Shown here: one piece after another, positions 2,433 through 63,619 of the stretch
How the letters are laid out: each line of letters starts with the position of its first letter
Position numbering within the stretch: the first letter of the stretch is position 1
Assembly (NCBI GenBank): GCA_046727415.1
Contig: JBKPCO010000021.1
Location: forward strand, 34,052 to 98,051
Origin: Candidatus Methylomirabilota bacterium
GTDB lineage: Bacteria > Methylomirabilota > Methylomirabilia > Rokubacteriales > CSP1-6
Direction of reading: 5' to 3'
Length of the DNA: 64,000 bases
Position numbers and translations under genes: made by a program
Notes under the pieces: generated by a model
What the model was told of the DNA's origin: nothing
What the model saw: only the letters and a program-made list of their open reading frames with translations
Databases searched by the model: none

Positions 2433-4382
2433 CTAAGCCTTCTTGCCCCAGAGATCCCTGGCGAGCCAGTCGAGCCCGAGGCCCTTCAGGGTCTGGGGCA
2501 AGGGCTTGCCGCTCTTCCTGTCGAAACCGACCTCGCTGTACCAGGTGTCGAGCATCTGCTCCCACTGCGCTCGGATGGCCTGCCCCTTCGCAGGACCGTC
2601 AACCGGCGTCGAGCCGTAGCGCGCCGAGGGATATTCGAGCGCGCCGGTGTGGCCGCAGCGGAGCGCGGTCGCGCGGTTGATGGCGGCGGTGCGCTTCCCG
2701 AACCGCAGCGCTTCGTCGACCGTGAAATTCCAGCCGGTCGCCGCCGAGAGGGCGCGGCAGATGTACTCGAGCCGCACGCGCGACGTGAAGATGCAGATGC
2801 CGAGCGAATCCTCGAAGCTCCGGCGTCCGCGCAGCCCGGCGACGTACTTGGCCACCTGCTCGCCGTCGAACGGGTTGATCCGCGCCGGCTGCCCGATCTC
2901 GGTGGGGTGCACAGGGTTACCCGTCTCCATCGTGGCGGTCGACGACGTGCACGTGTCGAGCATCTCTTCCCACCGCGCGCGGTGGTCGTGGCCGCGCGGC
3001 GTGGCACCCTTCTCGATGTAGACCGCGCACTCCTTGGCGGCCCCGCCGAGCTTCTCGGCGGCGCGCTTGACGCCGTCGGCGAGGAAGTCGCCGAAGCCTT
3101 CGCGGCGGCTCACCATCCAGAGGAGCCGCTGCGCGCCCTTGATGTCGCCCCACTTGAGCTCGAAGCCGAGCTGCTCGCGAGTGATGTAGCCCTTCTCCTG
3201 ACACTCCATCACCCAGCCACAGAGCCAGCCCCACTCGTTGACGTCGACGCAGGCCTTGTCGCACTCGGTGTTGAGCCAGGCGACGCCGTCGCGGTCCGCC
3301 GCGCCGATCGCCCAGCCGCAGCCGGACCAGCCCTCGTACTCGGGCTCGTCGACGATCTGCCCCTTCTGCGCGCCCTGGCGGATGACCGACATGTGGCAGT
3401 GGTGCATGCCGCAGGCGTTGCACTGATGGCCGCGGTGGTCGAAGTTCTCGCGGAGCTTCGGCGCCTCCCAGACGCTCATGTCGGCGCCTTCGACGTTCGA
3501 CGTCAGGTTGGTGGTGTAGTTCTTGATGGGCAGGGCGCCCATCTTCGAGAGGTTCACGACGCCGGGCAGCGTGCCGTACTCGTAGAGCGAGCGCGCCGAC
3601 GGGTCGGTTTGTAAATCGTGCGACATGTCCTGGGCCGCCTGCATCAGGCCGCGCGGATCGGCGGCGTGGAGCGCCTTCGTGCCCTTCACGATCGCGACCG
3701 CCTTGAGCCGCTTCTTGCCCATGACGGCGCCGCAGCCGTTCTTGGAAGCGACGTGGCCGAAGTCGCCCTGAATGGCCGCGAAGCGCACGAGGTTCTCGCC
3801 GGCCGGGCCGATCGAGTAGACCGAGAGCTGGTGGCCGGCCAGGCCGGTTTCCTTGTAGAGCGCGTTCTGAGTCTCCCACGTGTCCAGCCCGAGGAGCGAC
3901 TTGGCGTCGCGCAGCTCGACGACGTCGTCGTTGATGTAGAGATAGACCCAGTCCTTCGACTGCCCCTGGATGATGATCGCGTCGTAGCCGCAATACTTGA
4001 GGTTCGTGCCGAAGAAGCCGTTGGCCTGGGTCGAAGTGGGGCCGTTGGTGCCGGGCCCGATGGTGCAGACGGTGAGACCGCCCGTGCCCCACACCGGCAG
4101 ACCGGCCAGAGGCCCTGTTCCCAGGACGAGCCGGTTCTCGGGATGGTCCCACGCCACGTTGCCCTTACCGCCCTTCGTCGCCGTCTCGCGATAGAGGATC
4201 ATCGCGCCGACACCGACGCCGCCGAGCAATTCACGCTGGGCCTCGGGAGACCACGGCTCGGCCCGGCACGTGCGGCGCGAGAGATCGACGCGCAGCAAGT
4301 TGCCGGCGAAGCCGCCCGGGCGCGGGGTCGTCGCGGTCTTCGACTTGGGACGCTTGGGCGCGGTCGCGGTTGCGGGACTCAT
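2433..4382 (-). CDS. aor: Tungsten-containing aldehyde:ferredoxin oxidoreductase (AOR family) catalytic subunit.
   Basis: About 640 aa with AOR-family blocks: LRVDLS at the N-terminus, GNVAWDHPENRLVLGTGPLAG, the cysteine-rich C-CXXC segment HQCNACGMHHCH, and a C-terminal AOR domain. The N-terminal few codons are uncertain. Confidence 0.85.
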   Translation of the reverse strand: MSPATATAPKRPKSKTATTPRPGGFAGNLLRVDLSRRTCRAEPWSPEAQRELLGGVGVGAMILYRETATKGGKGNVAWDHPENRLVLGTGPLAGLPVWGTGGLTVCTIGPGTNGPTSTQANGFFGTNLKYCGYDAIIIQGQSKDWVYLYINDDVVELRDAKSLLGLDTWETQNALYKETGLAGHQLSVYSIGPAGENLVRFAAIQGDFGHVASKNGCGAVMGKKRLKAVAIVKGTKALHAADPRGLMQAAQDMSHDLQTDPSARSLYEYGTLPGVVNLSKMGALPIKNYTTNLTSNVEGADMSVWEAPKLRENFDHRGHQCNACGMHHCHMSVIRQGAQKGQIVDEPEYEGWSGCGWAIGAADRDGVAWLNTECDKACVDVNEWGWLCGWVMECQEKGYITREQLGFELKWGDIKGAQRLLWMVSRREGFGDFLADGVKRAAEKLGGAAKECAVYIEKGATPRGHDHRARWEEMLDTCTSSTATMETGNPVHPTEIGQPARINPFDGEQVAKYVAGLRGRRSFEDSLGICIFTSRVRLEYICRALSAATGWNFTVDEALRFGKRTAAINRATALRCGHTGALEYPSARYGSTPVDGPAKGQAIRAQWEQMLDTWYSEVGFDRKSGKPLPQTLKGLGLDWLARDLWGKKA

Positions 4383-5704
4383 ACGGCTACTGGAGTCTCC
4401 CCGGGCGCCTTCGACGGACGCCCCAGAATGGTTTCGGGCAGCAAGGCACTCGTCGTCTTGGTCGCGATGAAGGCCGGCTTGATGTCGAACGGGTTCGCCT
4501 TGAGATGCGCTTTCCAGCGTCCGAGCCCGACGCCGGACTGGACGAGGCCCTTGAGCATGCCGACGTCGTTGGTGGTCCAGATATCGCTCGAGGGGCCGAG
4601 GATGATCGCGCCGATGAGCCGCTCGCCCCGCCAGAGAAGCTTGCGATACGCGGGCCGGTCGGCCTTGACGCCCGATGCCGTCTCCGCCTTGGCGTCGTCC
4701 CAGGCGCCGAACGACGCCACGTCGAGATGGCAGACCTCGACGATGTTGATGATGAGGCTGCCTCGATACGACACGGCCTTGCCGGCCATGTTGGCGCCGA
4801 CCACGCGGCCGTGCTCCTGCGCGGTCGGCTCGATCGCGTGCACCGCGTTCGCGCCCGAGATCAGATCGCGCCCCTCGGCCACGTCACCGGCGGCGTACAC
4901 GTTCGGCACGCTCGAGCGCAGATGATCGTCGACGACGATCCCCTGATTCACCCGCACGCCCGAGTCTTTGAGCCAGTCGAGATTCGTCCGGATCCCGGTG
5001 GCCATGATCACGACGTCGGCCACCAGGTCGCCGCCGGTGGTGAAGCTGAGCTTCTGCCGGCCCTTCACGTCCGCGATCTTCGTGAGCCGCACGCCGGTGC
5101 GCACCTTGACGCCGTGCCGCGTGAGCCACGCCTCGACGAGCCCGGCGCCGGTGTCGTCGATCATCCGCGGCAGGATGCGCGGCGCCACCTCGATGATCGT
5201 CAGCGTGGCGCCAAGGGCCAGGATGGAATTCAGGATGGTGAACGCGATGAAGCCCGCGCCGACCATGACGACGTGACTGCCCGGGCGAATCTGCGCGACG
5301 ACGCCCCGGGCCTGCTCGAGGGTCCAGAAGGAGTGGACGCCCGGGCCGTCGGCGCCCGGGACCGGCGCCCGCACCGCCGAGGAGCCGGTGGCGATCAGGC
5401 AATCGTCGTACTCGACCTTGGTGCCGTCGTCCAGCGTGCACACGTTCGCCTTCGTGTCGAGCGCCGTCACGCGCTTGCCCACGTGCGCCGTCACGCCCCA
5501 GCCGGCCAGCACCTTCGGGGTCGCGGTGAATACGTGCGACTCGGCGATCGAGCGGTCGAGGTAGTACGGCAGAACCATGCGCGAGTACGGCCACTCGGCG
5601 CTCACCAGCGTGATCGTCGACCGCTCGGTCTCCTCCTCGCGGATCGTCCGGATCGCGTTCATCCCCGCGGTACCGCCGCCGATGATCAGGTGTCGGGCCG
5701 CCAT
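4379..5704 (-). CDS. FAD/NAD(P)-binding pyridine nucleotide-disulfide oxidoreductase (AorC-like electron-transfer subunit).
   Basis: The N-terminus MAARHLIIGGGTAGMNAI is a dinucleotide-binding motif, a second one is HVVMVGAGFIAF, and the length is 441 aa. There is a 4-nt overlap with the AOR gene and a 1-nt overlap with the ferredoxin gene. Confidence 0.85.
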   Translation of the reverse strand: MAARHLIIGGGTAGMNAIRTIREEETERSTITLVSAEWPYSRMVLPYYLDRSIAESHVFTATPKVLAGWGVTAHVGKRVTALDTKANVCTLDDGTKVEYDDCLIATGSSAVRAPVPGADGPGVHSFWTLEQARGVVAQIRPGSHVVMVGAGFIAFTILNSILALGATLTIIEVAPRILPRMIDDTGAGLVEAWLTRHGVKVRTGVRLTKIADVKGRQKLSFTTGGDLVADVVIMATGIRTNLDWLKDSGVRVNQGIVVDDHLRSSVPNVYAAGDVAEGRDLISGANAVHAIEPTAQEHGRVVGANMAGKAVSYRGSLIINIVEVCHLDVASFGAWDDAKAETASGVKADRPAYRKLLWRGERLIGAIILGPSSDIWTTNDVGMLKGLVQSGVGLGRWKAHLKANPFDIKPAFIATKTTSALLPETILGRPSKAPGETPVAV

Positions 5705-6557: not shown

Positions 6558-7460
6558 TCAAACGGGCGCTTCGCGGTTTGATGCTCTCAGGAACATATAC
6601 ACCGACGAGAAATCCTTCCGGCCGAAACCGTGCGAGGACGCGAGCCGGAGCGCCTGCTGCGCCGCCGGCGCCACGACCACCGGCACCCGCAGCTCGCGCG
6701 CGGCGTTGACGGCGAGCCCGAGATCCTTCGCCATCAGGTCGGTCGTGAAGCCCGGCGCGTAGTCGCGGCTCGACGGGGCCTTGCCGACGAGGCCCGGGAC
6801 CGGATGCATGTGCTCCATCACCCAGGTGTTGCCCGACGACTTGGAGATGACGTCGGTCAGGACTTTCGGATCGACCCCGAAGCCCTCGGCGATCCGGAAT
6901 GCCTCACTGACCGCCACGGCGGCGACGCCGGCGATCAGGTTGTTGCAGAGCTTGGCGACCTCGCCCGATCCCACCGGGCCAACGTGGATGATGTTGGCGC
7001 CCATCGCCGCCAGCACCGGGCGGGCCTCCTCGAAGTCGCGCGCGTCGCCCCCCACCATGATGGCCAGTGTCCCGTCTTCCGCGCGCGGAACGCCGCCGGA
7101 GACCGGCGCGTCGAGGAAACGCGCGCCGCGCGCCGTCGCCGCCTCGGCGATCCGGCGCGAGACGCTCGGGTCGATCGTCGACATGTCGACGCACAGGCGG
7201 CCGCGGGCAACGCTCTCGAGGACCCCGCCGGCACCGAGGTACACCGACTCGGCGTGCGACGACGAGGGCAGGATGGTGATCACCAGCTCGGCGTCGCGGG
7301 CGGCGGCCGCCGCCGAGGCGGCGCGCGCGGCCCCGGCCCGGACGGCGCCGTCCAGCGCGGCCTCGGCCACGTCGTATGCGCTCACGGCGTGCCCCTTCTT
7401 CACGAGGTTCGCCAGCATCGGCCGCCCCATGGCTCCGGTTCCGATGAATCCGATCTTCAT
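6558..7460 (-). CDS. HIBADH-family NAD-binding dehydrogenase (second paralog).
   Basis: The N-terminus is MKIGFIGTGAMGRPMLANLVKKGH, and DAPVSGG and LCNNLIAG are present. 300 aa. Confidence 0.85.
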   Translation of the reverse strand: MKIGFIGTGAMGRPMLANLVKKGHAVSAYDVAEAALDGAVRAGAARAASAAAAARDAELVITILPSSSHAESVYLGAGGVLESVARGRLCVDMSTIDPSVSRRIAEAATARGARFLDAPVSGGVPRAEDGTLAIMVGGDARDFEEARPVLAAMGANIIHVGPVGSGEVAKLCNNLIAGVAAVAVSEAFRIAEGFGVDPKVLTDVISKSSGNTWVMEHMHPVPGLVGKAPSSRDYAPGFTTDLMAKDLGLAVNAARELRVPVVVAPAAQQALRLASSHGFGRKDFSSVYMFLRASNREAPV

Positions 7461-8425: not shown

Positions 8426-10051
8426 TTAGAGCGGCCGGATCGGGCGCGACACCGCTCGGCTGAAGGTACAGTTCGGGACGACCGCCGAGTGCTTGCCGGG
8501 CCCGCCGGCGACGATGACCAACACGTCCTCCGGCGATGGCACCTGCGGCAGCAGCGCGTCGTCGTCGGTGATCGCGTGCATCCAGCGCGGCCAGTCCTGG
8601 ATACCCCACATGCCGCCGAGCTTGAGCGTACGAAGCGGAAGCCGCGCGTGCTCGAAGATGAATCGCTGGATGTCCTCGCGGCCGAGCCCGTCCTTCGCGA
8701 TCGTCTGCGCGTGCTCGGGACCAAGGACGATCAGGAGCTGACTCTGCGAGAAGTACCAGCCGACATTCGAGCCGAGCGACACCGACGTGTCGGCCACCGT
8801 CGCGAGAATGCCGGCGGCGGTCGTCGACACGTGATCGTTCACGTTGTGCGGCGGCTCGCCGCCGAACACCGTCACCATGCTGTTCTCGTGCAGGGGGCCC
8901 CAGGGCGCGTCCCGACGCTCGGCGATACAGTAGGAGAACTTCGCGGGGCTTCCCTGGGTCGCCATGTCGTGCCGGCCCGGCCAGGCGCCGCCGACGTTGA
9001 GCAAGATGAGGCGGATCGCCCGGCCGATCGTCGCGTTGGCGCGGAAGCCCGGGCCGAAGCAGCCGCTGCCGCCGTGCACGCCGAGCTCGTCCGCGATCGG
9101 GCCGTGCACGATCAGGAGCGGCGCGACCGAATGCGTCGTCGCCTGGACGCCGTACAGATTGAACGCGGGATCGAGCATCGCCTCGACCGCGGCCACGACG
9201 AGCGGGAAGGCCACCGGCTCACAGCCCGCCATGACGGCGTTGACGGCGAGCTTCTCGAGCGTCACCCGTCGCCAGAGTGGAGGCATCACGCCGAGCAAAC
9301 GGTCGGGCTGGGTGCCGCCGAGCATCGCTCGCACCCGCTCCTCGGTCGGCGGGACGATCGGCAGCCCGTCGCACCACTCGCGCTCGCAGAACGCGGCGAG
9401 AATGGCTTCGGGGGTATCGGGAATTGTAATTGTTGTAGCGGGGGCCTCGAGGCCGGCTTGGATCGAGGGTGGCCTGACAAAGGCGCGTGCCGGCTCCGAC
9501 ACGCCTGGGCTGCGGGTCGCGTCGGATTTGCGCAGCAGGGCTACCAGCTGGTCGACGGCTTGGCGCGCGCGGCGCGTGACGCCTTCGCTACGTTCGCCCC
9601 CGAGCGGATGCTCGAGCACGAGAAGCGGGAGCCCGGCGACGCCGAGGGCGCCGATCTCGCTCAGCGCGAGCCCCTGGAAGACGGTGGTGGTGATGACCCC
9701 GGCGGGCGTGCCCGCCTTCGCCAGCTCGATGGCGTCGTGGAGACTCCACGACGTGCACGACCCTCAGTCGGCCGAGCCCGCGAAGACGACGTCGCAGTCC
9801 TTGGCGAGTCCGGCGACGATCTCCGGCGCGGCCGGCGTCGCCGCGTTCGCCTTGCGGCGGCGAATGATCGACTTGACGCCGTGCTCGGCGGAGAGCAGCG
9901 CGCCGATCTCGTCGGCGAGCCGATCGAAGTTCGCCTTCCTGTTGTCGAGAAAGCCGACGGTCAGGCCGGCCAGCGACGGGGGCAGCGGCGGCGCGCTCGC
10001 CGTGTCGCCGCCGGCGATGCCGACCGGGCTGAGGACGCGAATCAAAGTCAT
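8426..10051 (-). CDS. Candidate selenoprotein of the UGSC-motif type, fused in-frame to a roughly 440-aa conserved domain. The in-frame TGA at 9764..9766 would be read as Sec.
   Basis: ORF 9764..10051 (95 aa) ends at a TGA, but the same frame continues without a stop into ORF 8426..9619. The junction reads ...CDVVFAGSAD-U-GSCTSWSLHD, which is a U-G-S-C redox-like motif. A 10-bp-stem hairpin (CGTCGTGGAG-t-CTCCACGACG, 9733..9753) starts 11 nt 3' of the UGA, which is bacterial-SECIS-like geometry. Downstream translation is protein-like, not Arg-rich junk. Confidence 0.45.
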
Positions 10052-10266
10052 GAGGGTCTCCGTGTGATCCCTGTGGATCGGGCGAGGAGGCGCCCGAGGT
10101 TTTCGTGCAACTCGGCGAGGACCGAGCGCTTGATGGAGACGGACACCGACTCCACCGGCTCGCGACTACCAACGCGGTGAATCACCAGCGTGCCGTCGAA
10201 CTGCTCGGCGCGCTCGTCGGTGGCCGCCAGCCCTCTCAGTGTCAGAACTTCCCAGCTCTCCGCCAT
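10048..10266 (-). CDS. Hypothetical small protein (72 aa), possibly translationally coupled to the selenoprotein gene.
   Basis: ATG at 10266. Its stop overlaps the downstream ATG (ATGA). The composition is acceptable, but its start is only 18 bp from the divergent FGGY kinase start, so it may be spurious. Confidence 0.3.
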   Translation of the reverse strand: MAESWEVLTLRGLAATDERAEQFDGTLVIHRVGSREPVESVSVSIKRSVLAELHENLGRLLARSTGITRRPS

Positions 10267-15368: not shown

Positions 15369-18300
15369 TTACCCGAAGTCGTGGGACGGCACGTGATGGC
15401 CGAGCGCCGGAAGACCGCGCGCCCGCGCCGCGCGCACCGAGATGACGCCGTCCTGCCGCTGCGCGATTCCTTCCACGAGGAGGTACGGCTCGGCCACGAG
15501 CGCGAGGCGATGGCGGGCGAAGATCGGCGGCGTCACGATCACGTTGGCGATTCCCGTCTCGTCCTCGAGCGAGAGGAAGACGAAGCCCTTCGCGGTGCCC
15601 GGCCGCTGGCGGACGATGACGCTGCCGGCCACCTGGACTCGGGCGCCGTCGTGCACGCCCGCGAGCTCACGCGCGCTCAGCACGCCGGCGTGGCGGAGCG
15701 CCGCCCGCCGCAGCGCCATCGGGTGGCGGCCGAGCGTGACGCTGGTCCCGGCGTAGTCGGCGGCCAGGCGCTCGACCTCCGTCATCTCGCTCAAGGGGCT
15801 GAGCTCACGCGGCGGGTCCTCGAACAGCGGACCAGCCGACGACGCCGCCACCGTCCAGAGATTGGCGCGGCGGGTCCCGCCGAAGGGCGCGAGGGCGCCG
15901 ATCGCCGCGAGGGTTTCGAGCTCGTCGCGCTCGAGTCGCGCGCGCCGGGCCAGATCATGGACGGAGTCGAACGGCCGCGCGCGCCGGGCCGCCACCAGCG
16001 CGCGGCCGGCCGCCTCGCGAAGCCCCCGGACGTACCGTAATCCCAGCCGTACCGTGAGTCCGGTGTCGTCGGGCTCGATCACACACAGCCACTCCGAGCG
16101 CGTGACGTCGATGGGGCGGATGCGCAAACCATGGCGCTGCGCGTCCTTCACGATGGTGGCCGGATGATAGAAGCCCATCGGCTGGTTGTTGAGGAGCGCG
16201 GCGTAGAACGCAGCCGGATGGTGCACGCGCAGGTACGCGCTCGCGTAGGCGAGCAGCGCGAAGCTAGAGGCGTGGGAGTTGTGGACGACGAGGTCGTTGG
16301 CGAGGAAGTTGTGGTCGCCTTCGATGTGAAGATCGTATGTTTCCCGCGTGCCGACCGGATCGATCGACAGGACACGATCCCAGTACAGATCCGATTCGGC
16401 CACCCGAGCCAGCTCGGGAGAGTCGAAGTATCGAGCGAGCCTGGCCGCAACCCAGCGGCGATATCCTCGCTTGGATTCATTCGGCGACACGAGCTCCCGG
16501 AGCGCGACGCCGGCCCCATGGCCCACGTCGGCCCAGGTGGCCCCTCGATGGTGACGCTCGCGATCGATCACGGCTTTCACCGTCACCGGAACCACGACGC
16601 GTGATGCGCGCCGCTGAACGCCCTTCGTCGCCAAGTTTCTCACCCGTTGCCACTTGTCATGATCGAGAAACCGCCGAGCAATTCGCCGATCGAACCGCCG
16701 GAGGTTCTCCTGTCCGGTGATCGTGACGACGAAACTCGTGACGTGCCGACCCCGGTACGGACGCGAACGCGAGTACACCCGCGACACGATCCCGAGACGG
16801 AGGAGGAGATGCTGGATATCTTCGGCCAAGCGGCGCGAGGCCGTGTCATAGGACGCATGCCCAGCCCCTGAAATCGAGCCGTCGCCTTCCCAGAGTCGCG
16901 CCAGGAGCAGCGCGAGATCCACAGGACAGAGCTCGAAGACCTCCTCGGGTAGCCGCTTCGCTCGCGCGTTGGCGTCCCAGATGCCGAGCCGGCGAGCCCA
17001 TTGCACGGCCCCGATCGGTTTCGATGCGTCATGACGCCGGACATGCACGCTGTAGCAGCTTCCATGCCGGGCGATGGTGGCTCGTGTGTTGTCGAATTGC
17101 TGGACGGCGTCCACGAACTCGTCTCGATGCTGTGAGCTGGTCGTATAGAAATAGAACGTCGTGGGATGACACAGATTGCCTTCGGCGATGAGATCCGCCA
17201 GCACGATCAGCTGATGCCGGTGCCAGCGCCGGCGGCCTGACGCGGGAAGCCGACGAGCCGCCGCAATGTAATCTCCAACCTGGAGACTCGCCAGGCCTCG
17301 CCAACCGTGCATCGTGAGTAGAGGATGCTCGGCGGTCGCCATAATCTCCCGGCCAAGAGCGGTGCGAAGGCGATAGACCATCCGGGGCCCGCTCGATGTC
17401 GCCGCGAGCACGCGGCGCTTGCGCAACCGCATGCTGGCGTCGGATGCCAGCGTCTTCTCGACGCGCACTCGCCCGCTTACGATGTCTTCGATCGTCACCC
17501 AGCCCCCGGTATCGGCGTCGAGCACGCGCGTCTCACCAACGACACATTCAGGAAAGCCATACAGCGCGAAGGCGGTGATCGCGTGAACGATCTCCTCGGC
17601 GGCAGCGCCGTGGATCCCCTGCCGCGCCATCCCCGCCCGCAGCTTCGTCTCGACCTCGGCCATGAGACGCTCGCTCCGCTTGAAGCCGAACGCCCGGCGG
17701 AGCTCCTCGGCCTCCGTGGCCGTGAAGCCGGCCGTCACCATCGCCATGCGTAACAATTGCTCCTGGAACAGCGGCACGCCGAGGGTCCGGCGCAGGATCG
17801 GCTCGAGACTCGGATGGGGATACGTCACGGGCTCGCGGCCGCGGCGTCGCCGGATGTAGGGATGCACCATGTCGCCCACGATCGGCCCGGGGCGAATGAT
17901 CGCGACTTGCACGACGAGGTCATAGAACCGCTCGGGCCTCACGCGCGGGAGCGTCGCCATCTGGGCGCGGCTCTCGACCTGAAACACGCCGATCGTGTCG
18001 GCCTCCTGCAGGCTCTGGTACACGGCCGGATCGTCCGGCGGGAGTCGCGCCAGGTCGACGTCGCCGCCGGTCTCCCGCACGAGCGCCAGCGAGTCCTGGA
18101 TCACGGACATCATGCCGAGCCCGAGCAGATCGACCTTGACGATGCCGAGCCCCGCGCAGTCGTCCTTGTCCCACTGGACAACGACCCGGCCCGGCATGGT
18201 CGCGGGCTCGAGCGGCACCACGTCGTCGAGCCGGCCGGCGGCGATCACCATCCCGCCGGAGTGCTGGCCCAGATGCCGCGGCAGATCCTGGATTCGAGTC

Positions 18301-19742
18301 CAGAGCATGGCGAAGCGCCGGATGCGCGGCGCTGTCGGATCGCAACCGGCCTCGGGCAGATGCTTCGTCAGGAGCTCCTGGGGATCCTGATAGCCCCAGT
18401 TCGCGACGAGCTTCGCGAGCCGGTCGCGCATGTCGCGCGGAAGCCCGAGCGCCTGCCCGACCTCGCGCGCCGCGCTGCGACCGCGATACGTGATGACGTT
18501 GGCGGTCATCCCGGCGCCGAGCCGACCGTAGCGGCGATAGACATGCTGGATGACGGCTTCGCGCCGGTCGCCGCTCGGCAGATCGAGATCGATGTCGGGC
18601 CACTCGTCGCGCGCCTCGCTCAGGAACCGCTCGAACAGGAGCTCCATGCCGACCGGATCGACCGCGGTGATCCCGAGGGCGTAGCAGACCGCGCTGTTGG
18701 CCGCCGAGCCGCGGCCTTGAACGAGGATATCGTGGGTCCGGCAATGCTCGACGATGTCCCAGACGATCAGGAAATAGCCTGCGAGGTCGAGACGGCCGAT
18801 GAGGTCGAGCTCGTGTGCGACCTGACGGCGCGCCCGGGCCGCCAGCGGCCCCATACCGTAGCGCGTTCGGACGCCGCGCTCGGTCAGCTCGCGCAGATAC
18901 CCGAGCGGCGTCTGGCCCGGTGGCAGCGGAAACTCGGGGAACCGGTAGCCGAGATCCTTCAGGGTGAACGCCAGCCGCATCGCCAGCTCACCGGTGGCGG
19001 AGATCGCGTCGGGCAGATCCCGGAACAGCTCGGTCATCTCGGCGCCGCGCTTCAGCGAGCGCTCGCCGTTCGCCAGCAGGCGGCGGCCCGCGCGATCGAG
19101 ATCGGTCTTCTCGCGAATGCATGTGAAGACGTCGGCGAGCGGGCGACCCTCGGGGCGCGCGAAGAGCGGCTGGTTGGAAGCGACGAGCGCCACGGGGACC
19201 GCGCGCGCGAGCGCCACCAGCCCCTGGAGGATTTCTTCCTGGTCGCGGAGGAAATGACGCTGGATCTCGACGAAGCAGCTCGAGCGGCCGAACATCGCCA
19301 CCAGGCGCGCCAGAACCAGCCGGGCGCCGTCGACGTCGCCACTCGCCAGGCGCCGCGCGAGCGGGCCGCGCGTGCCCCCGGTGAGACATACCAGCCCGGC
19401 GGCGTACGGCTCGAGGTCGTCGAGCGCGATCGCGGCGGCGCCCTTCGGAGCCCCGAGCTTCATCCGCGTGATCAGGCGGCACAGGTTCTGATAGCCCTCG
19501 CGGTCCTCGACGAGCAGCGGCAGGCGCGAGCCGTCGGCCAGTGTGATCTCGCTGCCGACGATCGGCTTCACGCCCGCGTTCGCGGCCGCCCGGGTGAGCC
19601 GCGCCGCGCCGTAGACGCCGTCGCGATCGACGAGGGCCACCGCCGGCATCTCGAGCCGCGCCGCCTCGGCGGCGAACGCCTCCGGGTGCTCGGCGCCCTC
19701 GAGGAACGAGAAGGCCGATTGCGCGTGGAGCTCGATGAACAC
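15369..19742 (-). CDS. dnaE2: Error-prone DNA polymerase III alpha subunit DnaE2 (ImuC), interrupted by an intein.
   Basis: The PHP domain N-terminus is ELHAQSAFSFLEGA. Pol III alpha core blocks are present (GSAANSAVCYALGITAVDP, IDLDLPSGDRREAVIQ), and there is an OB-fold C-terminus. The likely start is the GTG at 19742, 2 nt after the imuB stop. A 423-aa intein is inserted between ...ALYGFPE and SHASSFALL. Confidence 0.9.
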   Translation of the reverse strand: MFIELHAQSAFSFLEGAEHPEAFAAEAARLEMPAVALVDRDGVYGAARLTRAAANAGVKPIVGSEITLADGSRLPLLVEDREGYQNLCRLITRMKLGAPKGAAAIALDDLEPYAAGLVCLTGGTRGPLARRLASGDVDGARLVLARLVAMFGRSSCFVEIQRHFLRDQEEILQGLVALARAVPVALVASNQPLFARPEGRPLADVFTCIREKTDLDRAGRRLLANGERSLKRGAEMTELFRDLPDAISATGELAMRLAFTLKDLGYRFPEFPLPPGQTPLGYLRELTERGVRTRYGMGPLAARARRQVAHELDLIGRLDLAGYFLIVWDIVEHCRTHDILVQGRGSAANSAVCYALGITAVDPVGMELLFERFLSEARDEWPDIDLDLPSGDRREAVIQHVYRRYGRLGAGMTANVITYRGRSAAREVGQALGLPRDMRDRLAKLVANWGYQDPQELLTKHLPEAGCDPTAPRIRRFAMLWTRIQDLPRHLGQHSGGMVIAAGRLDDVVPLEPATMPGRVVVQWDKDDCAGLGIVKVDLLGLGMMSVIQDSLALVRETGGDVDLARLPPDDPAVYQSLQEADTIGVFQVESRAQMATLPRVRPERFYDLVVQVAIIRPGPIVGDMVHPYIRRRRGREPVTYPHPSLEPILRRTLGVPLFQEQLLRMAMVTAGFTATEAEELRRAFGFKRSERLMAEVETKLRAGMARQGIHGAAAEEIVHAITAFALYGFPECVVGETRVLDADTGGWVTIEDIVSGRVRVEKTLASDASMRLRKRRVLAATSSGPRMVYRLRTALGREIMATAEHPLLTMHGWRGLASLQVGDYIAAARRLPASGRRRWHRHQLIVLADLIAEGNLCHPTTFYFYTTSSQHRDEFVDAVQQFDNTRATIARHGSCYSVHVRRHDASKPIGAVQWARRLGIWDANARAKRLPEEVFELCPVDLALLLARLWEGDGSISGAGHASYDTASRRLAEDIQHLLLRLGIVSRVYSRSRPYRGRHVTSFVVTITGQENLRRFDRRIARRFLDHDKWQRVRNLATKGVQRRASRVVVPVTVKAVIDRERHHRGATWADVGHGAGVALRELVSPNESKRGYRRWVAARLARYFDSPELARVAESDLYWDRVLSIDPVGTRETYDLHIEGDHNFLANDLVVHNSHASSFALLAYASAYLRVHHPAAFYAALLNNQPMGFYHPATIVKDAQRHGLRIRPIDVTRSEWLCVIEPDDTGLTVRLGLRYVRGLREAAGRALVAARRARPFDSVHDLARRARLERDELETLAAIGALAPFGGTRRANLWTVAASSAGPLFEDPPRELSPLSEMTEVERLAADYAGTSVTLGRHPMALRRAALRHAGVLSARELAGVHDGARVQVAGSVIVRQRPGTAKGFVFLSLEDETGIANVIVTPPIFARHRLALVAEPYLLVEGIAQRQDGVISVRAARARGLPALGHHVPSHDFG
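16278..17546 (-). mobile_element. Intein (423 aa) with a LAGLIDADG homing-endonuclease domain inside dnaE2.
   Basis: It begins with Cys (CVVGETRVLD) and ends ...LANDLVVHN, followed by Ser (the +1 residue). It carries two LAGLIDADG-like motifs (LADLIAEGN, LLARLWEGDGSISG). The flanking extein sequences rejoin as a conserved Pol III motif (GFPE-SHASS). Confidence 0.85.
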
Positions 19743-19744
19743 GG

Positions 19745-21259
19745 TCAGTCGTAGACCGCGTCGAGGTACCAGTGGTCGGTCAGCCGGTCGCGCGCGATGC
19801 GGCAGAGCGCGCCATCGGACAGCACAACGTCCCACTCCTCGCGCGCCCACGCCTCGACATCCCACCACTCGCCCGACGCGCGCCACGGCCCCGCCCACGC
19901 GAGAACGCGCCGCGCGTCCACGCGCATCGGCCGCGCGCCCACCGCCTCGACGTCGACACGCCGCGCCGGCCGCATTCGGCGGACGGCGAGCCGATGGTCC
20001 CGGCTGTCGAGGCCAGGCACATCCGGCGACCGCCTGTCGAGCGGCTCGGGCTGCGAGAACCCCAGCATCGTGAACGCGTCGGAACGATACGAGTCGACGA
20101 GCGCGGGCGAGCCGACATTCTCGGTGCCGACGAGGGCGGCCAGACGCGCGAGCACGGACACGAGGTCGCGGGGCGCGGGCGCGAGCGGCTGCCAGAGTCC
20201 TCCCTGCCCGGGCTGAGTCCGGATTGGATGTGCGCTCACCGCCACGCGCGTCACGGCGGCGCCGGGGGGGTGCGCCTCGAGATCGAGGATCACCAGAGTG
20301 AGGATCGGCTTGACGTCGACCACCGGGTAGGCGAGCGACACGTCTCGCGCGTGGTGACCACCGGTGGCGAGGCCGAGTCGGACCTCGAGCGCGTCAGCGG
20401 CGAGCGCCGCCGACGCGAGCCGCTTGCAGAGACGCTCCAGCACGGTCTCGAGCACGCCCGCGAGCACGCCGAGCGAGTCGATCTCCCACTCGAGCCCCTG
20501 CGCTTCCTCCCAGAATGGCGGCGGAGTCCACGGTCGGAACGGATCGTGATCGAGGCCGAGCGCCAGATCGTGAGCGCGCAGGCCGGCGGGGCCGAGCCGC
20601 GTGGCGAGCCCCGCGCGCGGCAGTGCCGCCAGCTCGCCGAGGGTCCGCACGCCCCATCGGGCGAGGGTCTCGGCGAGATCCGGAGAGAGTGCGAGCGTCG
20701 CCAGCGCCGCGCCCGCGAGCGCCGCGCGTTCCCGCCCCTCGGGAACGACCGTCACCGGGGCTGACGCCCTCGCCGCCGTCACTCTCGCGGCGGTCCGGCT
20801 GGCCGCCAACCCGACGCGGGCCGCGAGGCCGACCGCTCGCGCCTGATGCACGAGGCGTCGCCCGATGGCGGGGGGATCGCCGATGAGACGCTCGAGACCG
20901 ACCGTGTCGACGTAGACGAGCCCCGGGCCACCGTCCTCGATCCGTGGCGAAACGGCCAGCGCCGCTTCGAGCAGGGCCTGCCGCGCGGACAGAACGGACT
21001 CCTCGGTCAACGGTCGTGTCACCAGCATCGGGCAGCGGGCCCGCGCCTCCGCCTCCGTCATCCCCGGACGCACGCTCTGCGCGCGCGCCTCGGCGTTCGC
21101 CTCCACGATCATCGCGATCTTCGGCGCCGGTGAGCCGGCGCTCAGGCGATCGACCCGGACGTTGACGACGCCCAGCGGGCGCGCGCGCAGGGCAGGCTCG
21201 CCACGCTCGACCGCGGCCGCGTCGAAATACTCGACGAGCACGCAGGCGAAGCGGTTCAC
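19745..21259 (-). CDS. imuB: ImuB, a Y-family-polymerase-like mutasome component.
   Basis: The N-terminus is VNRFACVLVEYFDAAAVER, typical of ImuB/DinB-like proteins. The GTG start at 21259 overlaps the imuA stop (GTGA). The first 120 codons of ORF 19745..21619 are Arg-rich junk. Confidence 0.8.
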   Translation of the reverse strand: MNRFACVLVEYFDAAAVERGEPALRARPLGVVNVRVDRLSAGSPAPKIAMIVEANAEARAQSVRPGMTEAEARARCPMLVTRPLTEESVLSARQALLEAALAVSPRIEDGGPGLVYVDTVGLERLIGDPPAIGRRLVHQARAVGLAARVGLAASRTAARVTAARASAPVTVVPEGRERAALAGAALATLALSPDLAETLARWGVRTLGELAALPRAGLATRLGPAGLRAHDLALGLDHDPFRPWTPPPFWEEAQGLEWEIDSLGVLAGVLETVLERLCKRLASAALAADALEVRLGLATGGHHARDVSLAYPVVDVKPILTLVILDLEAHPPGAAVTRVAVSAHPIRTQPGQGGLWQPLAPAPRDLVSVLARLAALVGTENVGSPALVDSYRSDAFTMLGFSQPEPLDRRSPDVPGLDSRDHRLAVRRMRPARRVDVEAVGARPMRVDARRVLAWAGPWRASGEWWDVEAWAREEWDVVLSDGALCRIARDRLTDHWYLDAVYD

Positions 21260-21816
21260 GCGGTCCACCAGAGCGGCGGCGAATCCTCCGACCCTTGGCC
21301 GCGAGAGCGAAGCACCCGGGTTCTCGTGCGCACGCGCGCCAGGCGTGTGGGGACCGACCCGGGGCCGGTCCACTCGATCCCTTCCCGCAAGGTCTCGAGG
21401 GCCAGCGCCGCGCTCGATCCCGTGAGCCGACGCCGCCCGACGATCAGCAGCGCCACGTCGGTCCGCCGGACCGCGAACTTCAGGCGGAAGGACAGAGCCG
21501 GCGGAAGGCGAGGCACGCGCTCGCCGAGATCGAGCGCGACCAGCGCGAACCCCGGGCAGCGAACGAGCATGTCGGCGGCGCGAAGCGCCACGCCTCGATC
21601 GCTTCCGCATCGGACCCACAGAAGCCGGCGCAGATCGATCCCCGCCCGCGCCGCCGACCGTGGGTCGAATGTCTCCTCGGCGTCGACGAGGGCCGCGGTC
21701 TCGCCCTGACTCACGACGTCGCTGAGGCAGGCCAGGAGATAGCTCGTACGACCGGAGGAGGGCTTCCCGACGATCTCGGTGATCTCGCCTCGGATCGGGG
21801 CCACGCTCTTGGCCAT
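21256..21816 (-). CDS. imuA: ImuA, a RecA/SulA-like cell-division-inhibitor homolog.
   Basis: 186 aa with a P-loop-like GKPSSGRTS, placed upstream of imuB-dnaE2 in the canonical cassette order. Confidence 0.7.
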   Translation of the reverse strand: MAKSVAPIRGEITEIVGKPSSGRTSYLLACLSDVVSQGETAALVDAEETFDPRSAARAGIDLRRLLWVRCGSDRGVALRAADMLVRCPGFALVALDLGERVPRLPPALSFRLKFAVRRTDVALLIVGRRRLTGSSAALALETLREGIEWTGPGSVPTRLARVRTRTRVLRSRGQGSEDSPPLWWTA

Positions 21817-50023: not shown

Positions 50024-50662
50024 CTATGAGCCGGCCGGGGCCGAGGTCGCGGCAACGGCGCCGCGGCGTCGGACGGCACGCCGGCCCCATGTCCACCCTC
50101 GCACGCCAAGCAGCACAGCGAGCGCGGCCGCGTACCAGTACGGGTCCCTCACCCCGACCTTGGCCAGCCACAGGTAGTGGAGAACCCCGCAGACGCCGGC
50201 CACGTAGGCCAGCCGGTGCAGCCGCGTCCAGTTACGCGCGCCGAGCCGCCGGATCATCCCAGCCGTCGACGTCGCGGCAAGCGGGATCAGCGAGAGCATC
50301 GCCAGCATGCCGATCGTGATGTACGGGCGCTTGACAATGTCCGCCCACATCCTCGGCCAGTCGAAGAAGAAGTCGAGGACGATCCACACCGAAAAGTGCA
50401 GGCACACGTAGGCAAAGGCGAAGAGGCCGAGCAGCCGGCGCAGCGCGATCGGCCACGAGAGACCGAACACGACGCGGAGCGGTGTCATCGCCAATGAGGC
50501 GAGCAGGATCCGGATCGTCCAGTCACCGAGCGTGTTGGTGACGAAGCTGATGGGATTCGCGCCCAGATCGTCGGTCCACGTCCGGTAGGCCAGGGTCGCC
50601 AGCGGCACGAGACAGACGCCCCACACCGCGACCTTGAGCGCGATCCTCGCCCTATGCGACAT
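50024..50662 (-). CDS. msrQ: MsrQ, the heme-binding membrane subunit of the periplasmic methionine sulfoxide reductase.
   Basis: 212 aa with multiple TM segments, conserved His residues, and a position directly downstream of msrP. Confidence 0.85.
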   Translation of the reverse strand: MSHRARIALKVAVWGVCLVPLATLAYRTWTDDLGANPISFVTNTLGDWTIRILLASLAMTPLRVVFGLSWPIALRRLLGLFAFAYVCLHFSVWIVLDFFFDWPRMWADIVKRPYITIGMLAMLSLIPLAATSTAGMIRRLGARNWTRLHRLAYVAGVCGVLHYLWLAKVGVRDPYWYAAALAVLLGVRGWTWGRRAVRRRGAVAATSAPAGS

Positions 50663-50686
50663 CGCGCGGCAGCCGGCGGCCCGGCA

Positions 50687-51637
50687 TCAGTAGAATTTCT
50701 TCAAGTCCATCCCGGCGTACAGCGAAGCGACCTGGTCGGCGTACCCGTTGAAGGGCAGCGTTGCCCGCCGGCGGAATTCTCCGATGCGCCGCTCGTCGGC
50801 CTGGCTCCAGCGTGGATGGCTAACCGCCGGGTTGACGTTGGAGTAGAACCCGTACTCGCTGGGCGCGGCCTTCTCCCACGACGTCCTGGGCTGCTCGGTC
50901 ACCAGACGGATGCGAACGATCGACTTGGCGCTCTTGAACCCGTACTTCCACGGCACCACCATCCGCACCGGCGCGCCGTTCTGGTTGGGCAGGACCTGCC
51001 CGTACATTCCGACCGTGAGCAGCGTCAGGGGATGCAGCGCCTCGTCGAGCCGGAGGCCCTCGACGTACGGCCAGTCGAGCGATGAGAACCCGAAGAATCC
51101 CGGTTTCTGGGCCGGGAACTGGGCCGGGTCGAGCAGCGTGGTGAACTCGACGTACTTCGCCTGGCCGGTCGGCTCGACGCGCTTGAGCAGCGACGCGAGC
51201 GGAAACCCGATCCACGGGATCACCATCGACCACGCCTCGACGCAACGCAGCGAGTAGACGCGCTCCTCCAGGGGAAAGAGGCGGAGCAGCTCATCGATGT
51301 CGAACGTCTTGGGCTTGTGCACGAGCCCGTCGACCTGGACCGTCCACGGGCGCGGGCGCAGCGTGTGGCCCAGCCGCGAGGGATCGTCCTTGTTGACCCC
51401 GAACTCGTAGAAGTTGTTGTAGGTCGTGGCGTGATCGATCTTCGTGGGCGGCTCGGTCAGGCTGAAGGCGGCGTTGCGGGTCGCCGCGAGCGGCTGTCCT
51501 TTTGGGGTCGCCGCCGCGCCCGGCGATGGCATGAGCGCCAGCGCGGCCGCGCCGGCCATCAGCTCGCGGCGGCTCAGGTAGAGCTTGGGATCGGTGATCT
51601 CGCTCGCGGCGAACCGCGGCGCGCGTCGGATCAGCAT
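50687..51637 (-). CDS. msrP: MsrP, the molybdopterin-dependent periplasmic protein-methionine-sulfoxide reductase catalytic subunit.
   Basis: TAT signal ([14 protein letters not shown]) and sulfite-oxidase-fold blocks ([29 protein letters not shown]). Confidence 0.9.
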
Positions 51638-53865: not shown

Positions 53866-54402
53866 TTACCCCCGCTCGGCGAGGAGCCGCTTGATCATCG
53901 CCTCGGTGGCTTCGTAGTCGCCCTCGCCGATGTGTCGGTAGCGGACGATGCCGTTTCGATCCACCAGGAGCGTGGTCGGCCAGGCGATGACACCCCACCG
54001 TTTCCAGATCGTGAACTCGTTGTCCTGGACGACCGGGTAGTGGACGCCGAGCTTCTTCGTGGCGTCGATAACCTTGTCGTACGGCTTCTCCCACGCGAAC
54101 TCCGGACTGTGGACGCCGACGACGGTGAAGCCGTCCTTCTCGTAGCGCTCGTGCCAGTCCCGCACCTGCGGGATCACATTGCGGCAGTTGATTCAGCCGA
54201 ACGTCCAGAATTCGATGAGCACGACGCGGCCCCGCAGGCCCTGCATGGTCAAGGGACCGCTGTTGATCCAGCGGTCCCCCGACACCTCGGGCGCGGGGGC
54301 GCCAATGCGCAGGGCCTGGCCCGCCGCGGGCCCATTCATCAGGCCCACCGCCAGAAAAGCGGCCAGAACGAGCCCATGGCTCCGTCGCATGTCGTTCTTC
54401 AT
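53866..54402 (-). CDS. Candidate selenocysteine-containing periplasmic thiol:disulfide oxidoreductase (TlpA/redoxin fold) with a UxxC active site. The in-frame TGA is at 54193..54195.
   Basis: ORFs 54193..54402 and 53866..54177 are in the same frame and separated only by a TGA. The joined sequence reads ...VVLIEFWTFG-U-INCRNVIPQ..., which is the thioredoxin-fold WxxCxxC position. The N-terminus is a signal peptide (MKNDMRRSHGLVLAAFLAVGL). A SECIS-like structure lies at 54152..54186 (outer stem UGCC/GGCA, inner CCCGC-AGGU-GCGGG), about 20-35 nt 3' of the UGA. Confidence 0.55.
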
Positions 54403-61817: not shown

Positions 61818-62393
61818 GTGCGGTGGCGCCCCAGAGTGGCTCCGCTGTTCCAGCCGGACATTCTCCATGCAATCGCCCGGGGCGCTGTCGGCTTGCCTCA
61901 CGGCGAGATGGTGCGGCGCGTCACCGACGAGCTCGCCCGGCTCTACCCGGGCCACATCGAGACCCGTCCGAACTGGATGATGAGCCTTGCCGGTGGCGTG
62001 ACGGGCATCATGACCGTGCTTCACGGCTCGCTCTCCGAGTATGTGCTGATCTTCGGCACGCCAGTGGGCAGCGAAGGGTTCTCCGGTCGTTACAGGATCG
62101 AGATCCACGACTTCATGCTGGCCGGCGAGATGTGGACGTACACTGAGGCGGACTTCGCTGAGCGCCGCGCCTTCCGTCCCGGCGACGCGGCTGTCCTGCG
62201 GCGCGGCGAGGCCAAGGGTGTCAGGCTCAGCGAGGACACTTGGATGCTCGAATATGGCCGCGGCGCGATTCCGTCGGCGCTGCTGTTCGCGCTTGGCGAC
62301 GCGGTGATCGCCTTCGAGCTCCGGACCATCGCCCGGACGATCTGGACGTATGGCCGGCTGACGGTTCGGGAACTCCGCCGGGGCAAGATCTGA
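61818..62393 (+). CDS. ERG2/sigma-1-receptor-family protein (sterol C-8 isomerase-like).
   Basis: Collinear with sigma-1 receptor/ERG2: HGSLSEYVLIFGTPVGSEGFSGRY, EIHDFMLAGEMW and TWMLEYGRGAIPSALLFALGDAV. There is no N-terminal TM helix. The start is probably the GTG at 61818. Confidence 0.8.
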   Translation: MRWRPRVAPLFQPDILHAIARGAVGLPHGEMVRRVTDELARLYPGHIETRPNWMMSLAGGVTGIMTVLHGSLSEYVLIFGTPVGSEGFSGRYRIEIHDFMLAGEMWTYTEADFAERRAFRPGDAAVLRRGEAKGVRLSEDTWMLEYGRGAIPSALLFALGDAVIAFELRTIARTIWTYGRLTVRELRRGKI

Positions 62394-63619
62394 TGGCAAG
62401 CCGGCGGACGCTGGGTCCTCTCGTACTGATGGGGTGCCTGCCGCCGCTCACGTACTACTTCTATCTCTGCCTACGCGACTTTGGTGGTGCGCTCGCACTG
62501 CCCCGATCGGCGGCCGACCTGCACGACCTCACCGCCCGTGTGCCAGCACCGACGCTGCAGGCGCTGGCCCTCTACGGCGGCTGGGTCGTCCTCCAGGTCC
62601 TCTTGCAGGTGTGGGCGCCCGGACAGGTCCGGCAGGGCATGCCCCTCGACGACGGCTCGCGCTTCGCCTATCGGCTCAACGGGTGGTTCTCGTTCTGGGT
62701 CACCCTCGCCTTCGTGGCCGCCGCCGTCGCCGCCGGGGTGCTGTCACCCACCGCGGCCTACGACGAGTTCGGGCCGCTCCTCACCACTGTGAACCTGGTC
62801 GCGTTCGCCCTGGCCGCCGCGCTGTACGTGCAAGGCCGCCGCGCCGGCTCGACGACCGGTGATCCGATTCGCGACTACTTCATGGGGACGACGCTGAACC
62901 CTCGCGTGGGCGGGTTCGATGTAAAGTTCTTCTGCGAGAGCCGGCCCGGCCTCATCCTCTGGGTCGTGTTCAACCTGTCGTTCGCCACCGCGCAGCACCA
63001 GCGACACGGCACGGTGACGCTCGCGATGCTGCTGGTCAACGCGTTCCAGTTCCTTTACGTCGCCGATTACTTCTTCCATGAGGAAGCGATCCTCACGACC
63101 TGGGACATCAAGTATGAGCGCTTCGGCTGGATGCTCGCCTGGGGCGATCTCGTATGGGTGCCGTTCACCTACACCCTCCAGGCCTACTACCTTGTGGATC
63201 ACGCGCCCGCGCTGTCCCCGGCGGCCACCGCCGGCATCGTGGCCCTCAATCTGGCGGGCTACGTCCTCTTCCGCGCGTCCAACATCCAGAAGCATCGATT
63301 CCGCCGTGACCCCGAGGCACCGTTGTGGGGGCGGGCTCCGGAGTATATCCGCACCACCGCCGGCTCGCTGCTCCTGACCTCCGGTTGGTGGGGCATCGCC
63401 CGCCACGTGAACTATCTCGGCGACCTGGTGATGGCGCTCGCGTGGTGCCTGCCGACCGGTTTCCGTCATCCGCTGCCCTACTTCTATGTCGTCTACATGA
63501 CGGTCCTGCTCCTTCATCGCGAGCGGCGCGACAATGCAGTCTGCCGCGAGAAGTACGGTGCGGACTGGAACGCGTATTGCCGGAAGGTCCCCTGGCGGAT
63601 CCTTCCCGGAGTCTATTGA
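62393..63619 (+). CDS. ERG4/ERG24-family sterol reductase (delta-14/delta-7/delta-24-reductase family).
   Basis: Multi-TM protein with the sterol-reductase C-terminal signature LLTSGWWGIARHVNYLGDLVMALAWCLPTGF...PYFYVVYMTVLLLHRERRDNAVCREKYGADWNAYCRKVPWRILPGVY. The ATG overlaps the upstream stop (ATGA). Confidence 0.85.
   Translation: MASRRTLGPLVLMGCLPPLTYYFYLCLRDFGGALALPRSAADLHDLTARVPAPTLQALALYGGWVVLQVLLQVWAPGQVRQGMPLDDGSRFAYRLNGWFSFWVTLAFVAAAVAAGVLSPTAAYDEFGPLLTTVNLVAFALAAALYVQGRRAGSTTGDPIRDYFMGTTLNPRVGGFDVKFFCESRPGLILWVVFNLSFATAQHQRHGTVTLAMLLVNAFQFLYVADYFFHEEAILTTWDIKYERFGWMLAWGDLVWVPFTYTLQAYYLVDHAPALSPAATAGIVALNLAGYVLFRASNIQKHRFRRDPEAPLWGRAPEYIRTTAGSLLLTSGWWGIARHVNYLGDLVMALAWCLPTGFRHPLPYFYVVYMTVLLLHRERRDNAVCREKYGADWNAYCRKVPWRILPGVY

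Follow-up and report, generated by a model that had tools for sequence, protein, structure and literature searches.

A probable UGSC-family selenoprotein gene fused to a widespread partner domain in a Methylomirabilota contig

A 64,000-nucleotide (nt) stretch of DNA from a Candidatus Methylomirabilota bacterium (GenBank assembly GCA_046727415.1, contig JBKPCO010000021.1, positions 34,052 to 98,051; hereafter the 64-kb window) carries on its minus strand, at positions 8426..10051, a reading frame that runs from an ATG (10051..10049) to a TAA (8428..8426) and is interrupted only once, by a TGA at codon 96. Translation of this frame gives 541 sense positions when codon 96 is counted, 445 of which lie between the TGA and the TAA. 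An original prediction made from the letters of the window had pointed out that the frame stays open past the TGA, which holds as far as the TAA, although it put the length of the open part at 440 codons. The peptide across the interruption, DCDVVFAGSAD-*-GSCTSWSLHD, is the one on which that prediction built, and reading the TGA as selenocysteine (Sec) yields the motif U-G-S-C. The GC content at third codon positions (GC3) is 0.82 before the TGA and 0.89 after it, and such high values on either side are typical of true coding sequence in a window of 68% GC. Elsewhere in the window TGA is an ordinary stop that terminates most of the coding-like open reading frames (ORFs), so the codon is not generally reassigned here.

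The UGSC-containing proteins entered the catalogue of selenoprotein families in 2007 (PMC1976440) without a known function, and reviews of 2022 (PMC9312934) and 2026 (PMC13188914) still list none for them. We regard the membership of the window protein in this family, as defined by Pfam, as practically certain. With Cys put in place of Sec, the Pfam model UGSC (PF24696) gives a score of 154.7 bits (E = 3.4e-45; gathering cutoff 25), and the score is 147.7 bits with X at the Sec position. In the match, residues 6-173 correspond to profile positions 2-170 of 172, without a break at the TGA; a stop at codon 96 would therefore halve a domain. A search of the N-terminal part against UGSC models had been proposed as a check on the claim that calling two ORFs here is wrong, and this result bears the claim out. 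The NCBIfam model NF041046, ‘UGSC family (seleno)protein’, aligns residues 29-174 with profile positions 2-147 of 147 at 116.3 bits (E = 1.1e-33), which clearly points to homology yet lies under NCBI's equivalog cutoff of 125.

Homologues treat the TGA column as a coding position. The 445 residues after the TGA were searched against 1.84 billion cluster representatives, and the full-length homologues that were found, of 528-570 amino acids (aa), begin to align with this query about 95-108 residues in and have Cys at the TGA column, in the contexts DCGSC, ECGSC and DCGNC; the original prediction had proposed to look for Cys homologues at this column. Among 80 related loci on one-genome-per-species contigs, 57 have TGA in frame at the exact Sec column, followed by G, then S, A, G or T, then C or S, and a further 4 have TGC. 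The hosts of these loci span Methylomirabilota/Rokubacteria, Dormibacterota, Binatia, Chloroflexota/Dehalococcoidia, Actinomycetota (Acidimicrobiales), Alpha-, Beta-, Gamma- and Deltaproteobacteria, and one Bacillota isolate. TGA forms occur in the cultured carriers Robertmurraya sp. 2P01SA (L027) and Vineibacter terrae (L048), and Cys forms in the pairs of Natrialba and Halalkalicoccus. A Sec fusion that is approximately 71% identical to the window protein lies on contig DASRWT010000003.1 (L004), whose bin bears the name of an archaeon, ‘Candidatus Nitrosocosmicus sp.’; the contig is probably mis-binned and Rokubacteria-like.

Shortly past the UGA, the transcript contains a hairpin where the original prediction had placed one. 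The palindrome CGUCGUGGAG-U-CUCCACGACG (9753..9733, minus strand), whose first base is the 11th nt past the UGA, folds as a 9-bp stem with the 3-nt loop GUC. Its region has a modest folding z-score of -1.99, so that the hairpin by itself is not beyond chance. A comparison of 54 distinct homologous sequences reveals a conserved 8-bp core, GUCGUGGA-GUN-UCCACGAC (9752..9734), that starts 11-12 nt after the UGA and is paired in the same register in 97.2% of cells; as a control, shifting the 3′ partner by 1-3 columns lowers this share to 18-51%. The loop bases G23 and U24 are invariant in this set. Changes on both sides of the stem occur in 5 cells at two pairs, where G-C becomes A-U through synonymous changes of Ser and His codons; the conservation of the peptide T-S-W-S-x-H-D itself limits the covariation. 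The loop Ser codon, which supplies the loop GU in Sec forms, is AGU in every one of them, including those from high-GC3 genomes, and is UGC or AGC in three of the four Cys forms. Two Sec forms with the motifs U-G-S-S (L056:6265-6330) and U-G-T-S (L062:6632-6700) have other hairpin sequences at the same distance, with GU still in the loop. A scan of the hairpin and window against Rfam gave no matching family. Judged by the aligned sequences, the hairpin is a conserved element resembling a selenocysteine insertion sequence (SECIS).

These observations also bear on two other accounts of the interruption. Gene callers treat the locus as two independent genes, a 95-aa ORF for which the TGA is a true stop, followed by a downstream gene with an internal start such as GTG 9619: the program-made ORF list gives 9764..10051 and 8426..9619 separately, database relatives of 400-445 aa start just past the TGA, and the UGSC domain and the C-terminal domain encoded further downstream are truly separate genes in about two thirds of related loci. 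The split in the window, however, falls in the middle of the UGSC domain and not between the domains, and GTG 9619 lies inside that same domain. With the Pfam match running on across the TGA, the Cys homologues reading straight through it, and a conserved hairpin with constrained synonymous sites following it in 54 distinct sequences, we consider two genes very improbable. A pseudogene or an assembly error, with a Cys codon mutated or mis-called as TGA, would take a single base change from TGC or TGT, in what is apparently a metagenome-type assembly whose closest relatives are contigs of metagenome-assembled genomes (MAGs). Such an accident is extremely improbable given that 57 loci, assembled independently and drawn from many phyla, share the TGA and a hairpin to match, and that the frame is otherwise undisrupted, with high GC3 on both sides.

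Domain continuity, Cys homologues, TGA recurrence and the conserved hairpin thus agree, and 8426..10051 is very probably one Sec-containing gene (features in Table 1). Sec recoding is further supported by a second selenoprotein gene in the window and by the reported wealth of selenoproteins in Methylomirabilota MAGs, one of which has 63 predicted selenoprotein genes (PMC13188914). The second gene, at 53866..54402 (minus strand), had been listed as a Sec candidate by the original prediction and is a real one: it encodes a secreted thioredoxin-like protein of the Redoxin/AhpC-TSA type, with a signal peptide, that reads WTFG-U-INC (TGA at 54193..54195), and a hairpin, UCCCGC-AGGU-GCGGGA, with GGU in its loop lies about 20 nt past the UGA. 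Other same-frame TGA junctions considered as Sec sites, at 6558, 22714, 26722 and 50687, are ordinary adjacent genes instead.

Table 1. Features of the selenoprotein gene and its immediate 5′ region (positions in the 64-kb window)
Feature	Position	Strand	Basis
Complete probable selenoprotein gene, 541 residues (Sec at 96) and TAA	8426..10051	-	Single frame with one internal TGA; GC3
Shine-Dalgarno-like GGAG, 6 nt 5′ of the ATG at 10051..10049	10058..10061	-	Direct sequence reading
UGSC domain, residues 6-173, predicted flavodoxin-like alpha/beta fold	9533..10036	-	
UGA codon 96, probably read as Sec, first residue of U-G-S-C	9764..9766	-	Cys in aligned full-length homologues; TGA in 57/80 and TGC in 4/80 loci
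Cys99, second residue of the UxxC pair	9755..9757	-	Kept in most members; missing in L056 (U-G-S-S) and L062 (U-G-T-S)
SECIS-like hairpin	9733..9753	-	Folding; conservation in 54 distinct homologues
Inter-domain linker, residues ~174-206	9434..9532	-	Alignment A1 gappy and variable; poorly conserved
C-terminal 335-aa domain, without a family name	8429..9433	-	
Cys277, NAVMAGC motif of the C-terminal domain	9221..9223	-	At least 90% of members (alignments A1, A2, A3, A5)
Cys375, PxKFSYC-AE motif of the C-terminal domain	8927..8929	-	At least 90% of members (alignments A1, A2, A3, A5)
72-aa ORF 5′ of the selenoprotein gene; its TGA overlaps the selenoprotein ATG (ATGA)	10048..10266	-	Protein-level conservation

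The UGSC domain is followed, through a linker, by the C-terminal 335-aa domain (hereafter the C-domain), for which Pfam gives no match at E ≤ 10, NCBIfam none at E ≤ 1, and a sequence-profile search of the PDB nothing meaningful. Its relatives are numerous: at 50% identity clustering, the 445-residue query finds 5289 clusters at E ≤ 1e-3 and 1237 at E ≤ 1e-30. The closest of them, 80-97% identical, come from Rokubacteria/Methylomirabilota metagenomes and are recorded either as proteins of 400-445 aa that start just past the TGA or as proteins of 335-350 aa. The C-domain is strongly conserved and appears enzyme-like from its conserved motifs, which are DGLPxxPPT, NAVMAGC, TTH, NGP, RANATIGRA, GxPxKxSYCxAE..PW, PEHA and VAGGxGxHS.

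A tblastn scan finds the UGSC domain and the C-domain together in 77 of the 80 loci, in either order and as fused or adjacent genes. To call fusions, neighbouring tblastn matches were compared by script for their reading frame and for the number of stops in between. The 68 pairs in which UGSC comes before the C-domain comprise 22 fusions with a single TGA, 1 fusion without a stop and 45 pairs of separate adjacent genes; the in-frame fusion of a large downstream domain that had been proposed for the window thus recurs in 23 of them. The reverse order, C-domain then UGSC, occurs in 18 cases, 1 of them fused, and a further reverse-order protein in the representative set (P0125), with UGSC at its C-terminus, breaks off immediately ahead of the Sec site. 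Alternative architectures join the C-domain to the pyridine-nucleotide disulfide oxidoreductase Pyr_redox_2 (P0179) or to the ferredoxin:thioredoxin-reductase catalytic subunit FeThRed_B (P0223), or combine UGSC, C-domain and FeThRed_B in one chain (P0232). Three UGSC and C-domain pairs stand in tandem in one Chloroflexi MAG (L030:5968-11338). An extra stand-alone C-domain paralogue lies directly 3′ of the pair in L009, L033, L042, L048 and L051, which suggests hetero-oligomers.

The structure was predicted for a full-length Cys homologue of 533 aa that is approximately 42% identical to the window protein (P0124). Its AlphaFold2 model, based on a 50-sequence alignment, has a predicted local distance difference test score (pLDDT) of 95.1 and a predicted template-modelling score (pTM) of 0.94, with pLDDT falling to 77-85 in the stretch that matches the linker, and is consistent with fixed packing between the domains. 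From this model and the co-occurrence in 77 of 80 loci, we infer that UGSC and the C-domain act as one functional unit. The predicted fold of the UGSC domain is flavodoxin-like, with a five-stranded parallel sheet, and U-G-S-C would sit where strand 3 meets helix 3, as reactive nucleophiles of low pKa usually do.

Translation very probably starts at ATG 10051, inserts Sec at the UGA of codon 96, presumably by means of SelB and Sec-tRNA(Sec) acting on the hairpin, and ends at TAA 8426. For the protein, a mechanism can be proposed. The UGSC domain and the C-domain would form a single catalytic unit, in which the selenolate would either attack the substrate directly or undergo exchange with a C-domain disulfide or sulfenate; the Se-S bond would then be resolved by Cys99, and an external disulfide reductase, of the flavoprotein or the ferredoxin:thioredoxin-reductase type, would recycle the Sec/Cys99 pair. 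The substrate may be a small carboxylic acid or a coenzyme A (CoA) ester, to judge by the gene neighbourhoods. Taken as a whole, a two-domain selenoprotein produced by Sec recoding and working as a catalytic unit of this kind is the best explanation of the locus, and a likely one. We lean, with less assurance, towards a redox enzyme, that is, a selenol/thiol-dependent oxidoreductase, because the C-domain is also found fused to Pyr_redox_2 and FeThRed_B, modules that deliver electrons to disulfides.

The hint at a substrate class comes from the genes that recur near the related loci, namely those for TctC binding proteins (21 loci), CoA-transferase III (18), short-chain dehydrogenases/reductases (17), luciferase-like monooxygenases (13), MmgE/PrpD (9), acyl-CoA dehydrogenases (8) and enoyl-CoA hydratases (8). 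As gene families, they point loosely to carboxylate or CoA-ester metabolism. The hint is given little weight, since these neighbour genes are very common in several host lineages.

Several observations weigh against the proposed account. Betaproteobacteria abound in genes of the recurrent neighbour families, whose association with the pair may in part be background; the immediate neighbours in the window, a convergent EamA transporter gene and a divergent cluster for an FGGY kinase, 6-phosphogluconolactonase and glucose-6-phosphate dehydrogenase, carry no functional clue. The 64-kb window holds no tRNA gene, tRNA-Sec included, and no selenium-utilisation family (selA, selB or selD) was found among the approximately 40 window ORFs scanned. 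Some members that have neither U/C nor Cys99 (IGGS, IGAA and DSG-type) retain the C-domain Cys residues, and one C-domain Cys is missing in some CGSC members; given these patterns of loss, a simple scheme in which UxxC reduces a C-domain disulfide cannot hold across the family. In the alignment, members without the UGSC motif and members without the C-domain Cys residues do not coincide in any clean pattern. The U-G-S-S and U-G-T-S Sec forms, moreover, are without the resolving Cys. Together, the motif-less members, the CGSC members without one C-domain Cys and the forms without a resolving Cys suggest that Sec perhaps attacks the substrate as a direct nucleophile and is not only a disulfide shuttle. 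A different chemistry would make the protein a true selenoprotein whose Sec/Cys and two C-domain Cys residues ligate a metal or Fe-S centre, after the manner of Fe-S-dependent hydro-lyases, for catalysis as a lyase or isomerase and not as a reductase. We judge such a metal- or cluster-binding enzyme unlikely, and the selenol/thiol-dependent oxidoreductase remains the mechanism that we favour.

Comparison with known systems places the window gene as an added member of the UGSC family and not as a new selenoprotein family: with PF24696 and NF041046 it shares the N-terminal 173 residues, U-G-S-C, the UGA at the family Sec column and a hairpin 3′ of it. A survey of Global Ocean Sampling (GOS) data counted 255 UGSC sequences, the fifth-largest of 51 prokaryotic selenoprotein families, and in 2008 reported from these data a fusion selenoprotein, ‘UGSC/Unknown_1’ (PMC2398784, Fig. 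S1A). As described there, UGSC is fused to a domain of unknown function with conserved Cys that also occurs stand-alone, a description that fits the window gene. By its description, the 335-aa C-domain may be the ‘Unknown_1’ of Zhang & Gladyshev 2008. In its passages on UGSC, that paper mentions neither the near-obligate pairing nor the reversed order, and neither the fusions with FeThRed_B and Pyr_redox_2 nor the absence of a PDB neighbour. What appears to be new beyond the literature is the near-obligate pairing of UGSC with its partner, the reversed-order and reductase-module fusions, the prediction of a flavodoxin-like and not a thioredoxin-like fold for UGSC, and a widespread partner domain that has neither a family model nor a solved structural relative.

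GrdB and PrdB (PF07355), selenoprotein B of the glycine, sarcosine, betaine and D-proline reductases, have a local layout in common with UGSC, consisting of a beta-strand, U-x-x-C, a helix and a ‘(G)I(P/S)TV’ strand. Alignment by hhalign of UGSC with GrdB-like reads from GOS brings the Sec columns into register over 47 columns, with P values of 0.004 (single sequence), 0.57 and 0.1 (5-sequence profile), which are not significant. A database search started from one such read gave only near-identical proteins, most of them truncated at Sec, and hence no diverse profile. None of 26 UGSC members matches PF07355, a model that ends just before Sec, at E ≤ 10, and the UGSC partner domain has no detectable relation to GrdE or PrdA. 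Homology of UGSC to GrdB/PrdB, for which the Sec register agrees but the statistics are not significant, is thus a lead and not an assignment. In GrdB and PrdB, Sec acts as a nucleophile alongside a distinct substrate-binding component and makes use of a thiol reductant; by analogy, UGSC would work in the same way.

Two further assignments were rejected. UGSC has the UxxC motif, Sec at the start of a helix and Cys homologues elsewhere in common with UxxC selenoproteins of the thioredoxin fold, of which the redoxin at 53866..54402 is an example; it differs from them in its predicted flavodoxin-like five-stranded parallel sheet and its dedicated 335-aa partner domain, and no thioredoxin fold is predicted around its UxxC. 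For the C-domain, a place among the Class I (Fe-S) fumarate hydratases or the serine dehydratase-type hydro-lyases was set aside, as a shared global fold together with three Cys ligands for a [4Fe-4S] cluster was not found.

Public records bear out the expectation of the original prediction that standard annotation would split such a gene or drop its short part. Database proteins are truncated at the TGA, and most records hold a 95-aa stub and a 400-445-aa protein with a false start. For plasmid p2-T1 of Acidovorax sp. T1 (L082, NZ_CP021650.1, 7710-9242), the RefSeq gene table stops at the TGA, with a 97-aa piece ahead of it as the sole entry for the locus; this table leaves out pseudogenes, and the original record may differ. 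On plasmid 2 of Halalkalicoccus jeotgali (L081, 6612-9311), the other annotated RefSeq region inspected, a C-domain paralogue, a gene annotated as ‘UGSC family (seleno)protein’ and a C-domain gene follow one another, and both C-domains are named ‘hypothetical protein’. Every full-length Cys fusion in public collections either goes under ‘hypothetical protein’ or lacks a name. The UGSC gene thus exposes a systematic failure of annotation, in which both halves are mis-called.

Directly 5′ of the selenoprotein gene, the 72-aa ORF is conserved at the same position in two related loci (78% in L001 and 62% in L002), and a Pfam scan of it gave no match. It may be a co-translated small partner gene, although its membership in the unit is uncertain.

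Elsewhere in the window, 2433..5704 (minus strand) encodes an aldehyde:ferredoxin oxidoreductase (AFOR_N/AFOR_C) followed directly by a Pyr_redox_2/Rubredoxin_C flavoprotein. This flavoprotein was considered as a dedicated UGSC reductase, and the link was not established: a homologue lies within 10 kb of a UGSC pair in only 9 loci, and here the flavoprotein is paired with the aldehyde:ferredoxin oxidoreductase instead. A gene for a DnaE-type DNA polymerase III alpha subunit (15369..19898, minus strand) contains an intein with a LAGLIDADG endonuclease domain and is adjoined by a short RecA-like ORF; the set as a whole (15369..19898, 19745..21619 and 21256..21816, all on the minus strand) resembles a mutagenesis cassette of the imuA/imuB/dnaE2 type that carries an intein. 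At 62240..63619 (plus strand), this bacterial window encodes a protein of the ERG4/ERG24 sterol-reductase family (E = 2e-124), which is mainly eukaryotic. By sequence appearance alone, 50024..51637 (minus strand), 3′ of an OmpR-type regulator gene, encodes an MsrP/MsrQ-like pair, a periplasmic molybdoenzyme-like protein and then a membrane partner, and the same-frame TGA/TAA junctions there are ordinary stops.

The window gene shows the fused architecture cleanly and at full length. As a more speculative proposal, which we hold only tentatively, UGSC and the 335-aa domain could constitute an unrecognised, widespread Sec/Cys-dependent enzyme system of bacteria and haloarchaea that acts on small carboxylates or CoA esters. 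It could be a reductase or a related thiol-dependent catalyst, recycled by modules resembling thioredoxin reductase or ferredoxin:thioredoxin reductase, with a catalytic domain that has no convincing solved structural relative. If this proposal were true, the system would be the functional counterpart, in the aerobic world, of the Stickland selenoprotein-B reductases and would account for the abundance of UGSC among the selenoproteins of aquatic metagenomes. The gene is a good entry point to an abundant but functionally unsolved family, for which the pairing of the two domains, the reductase fusions and the predicted fold offer testable handles.

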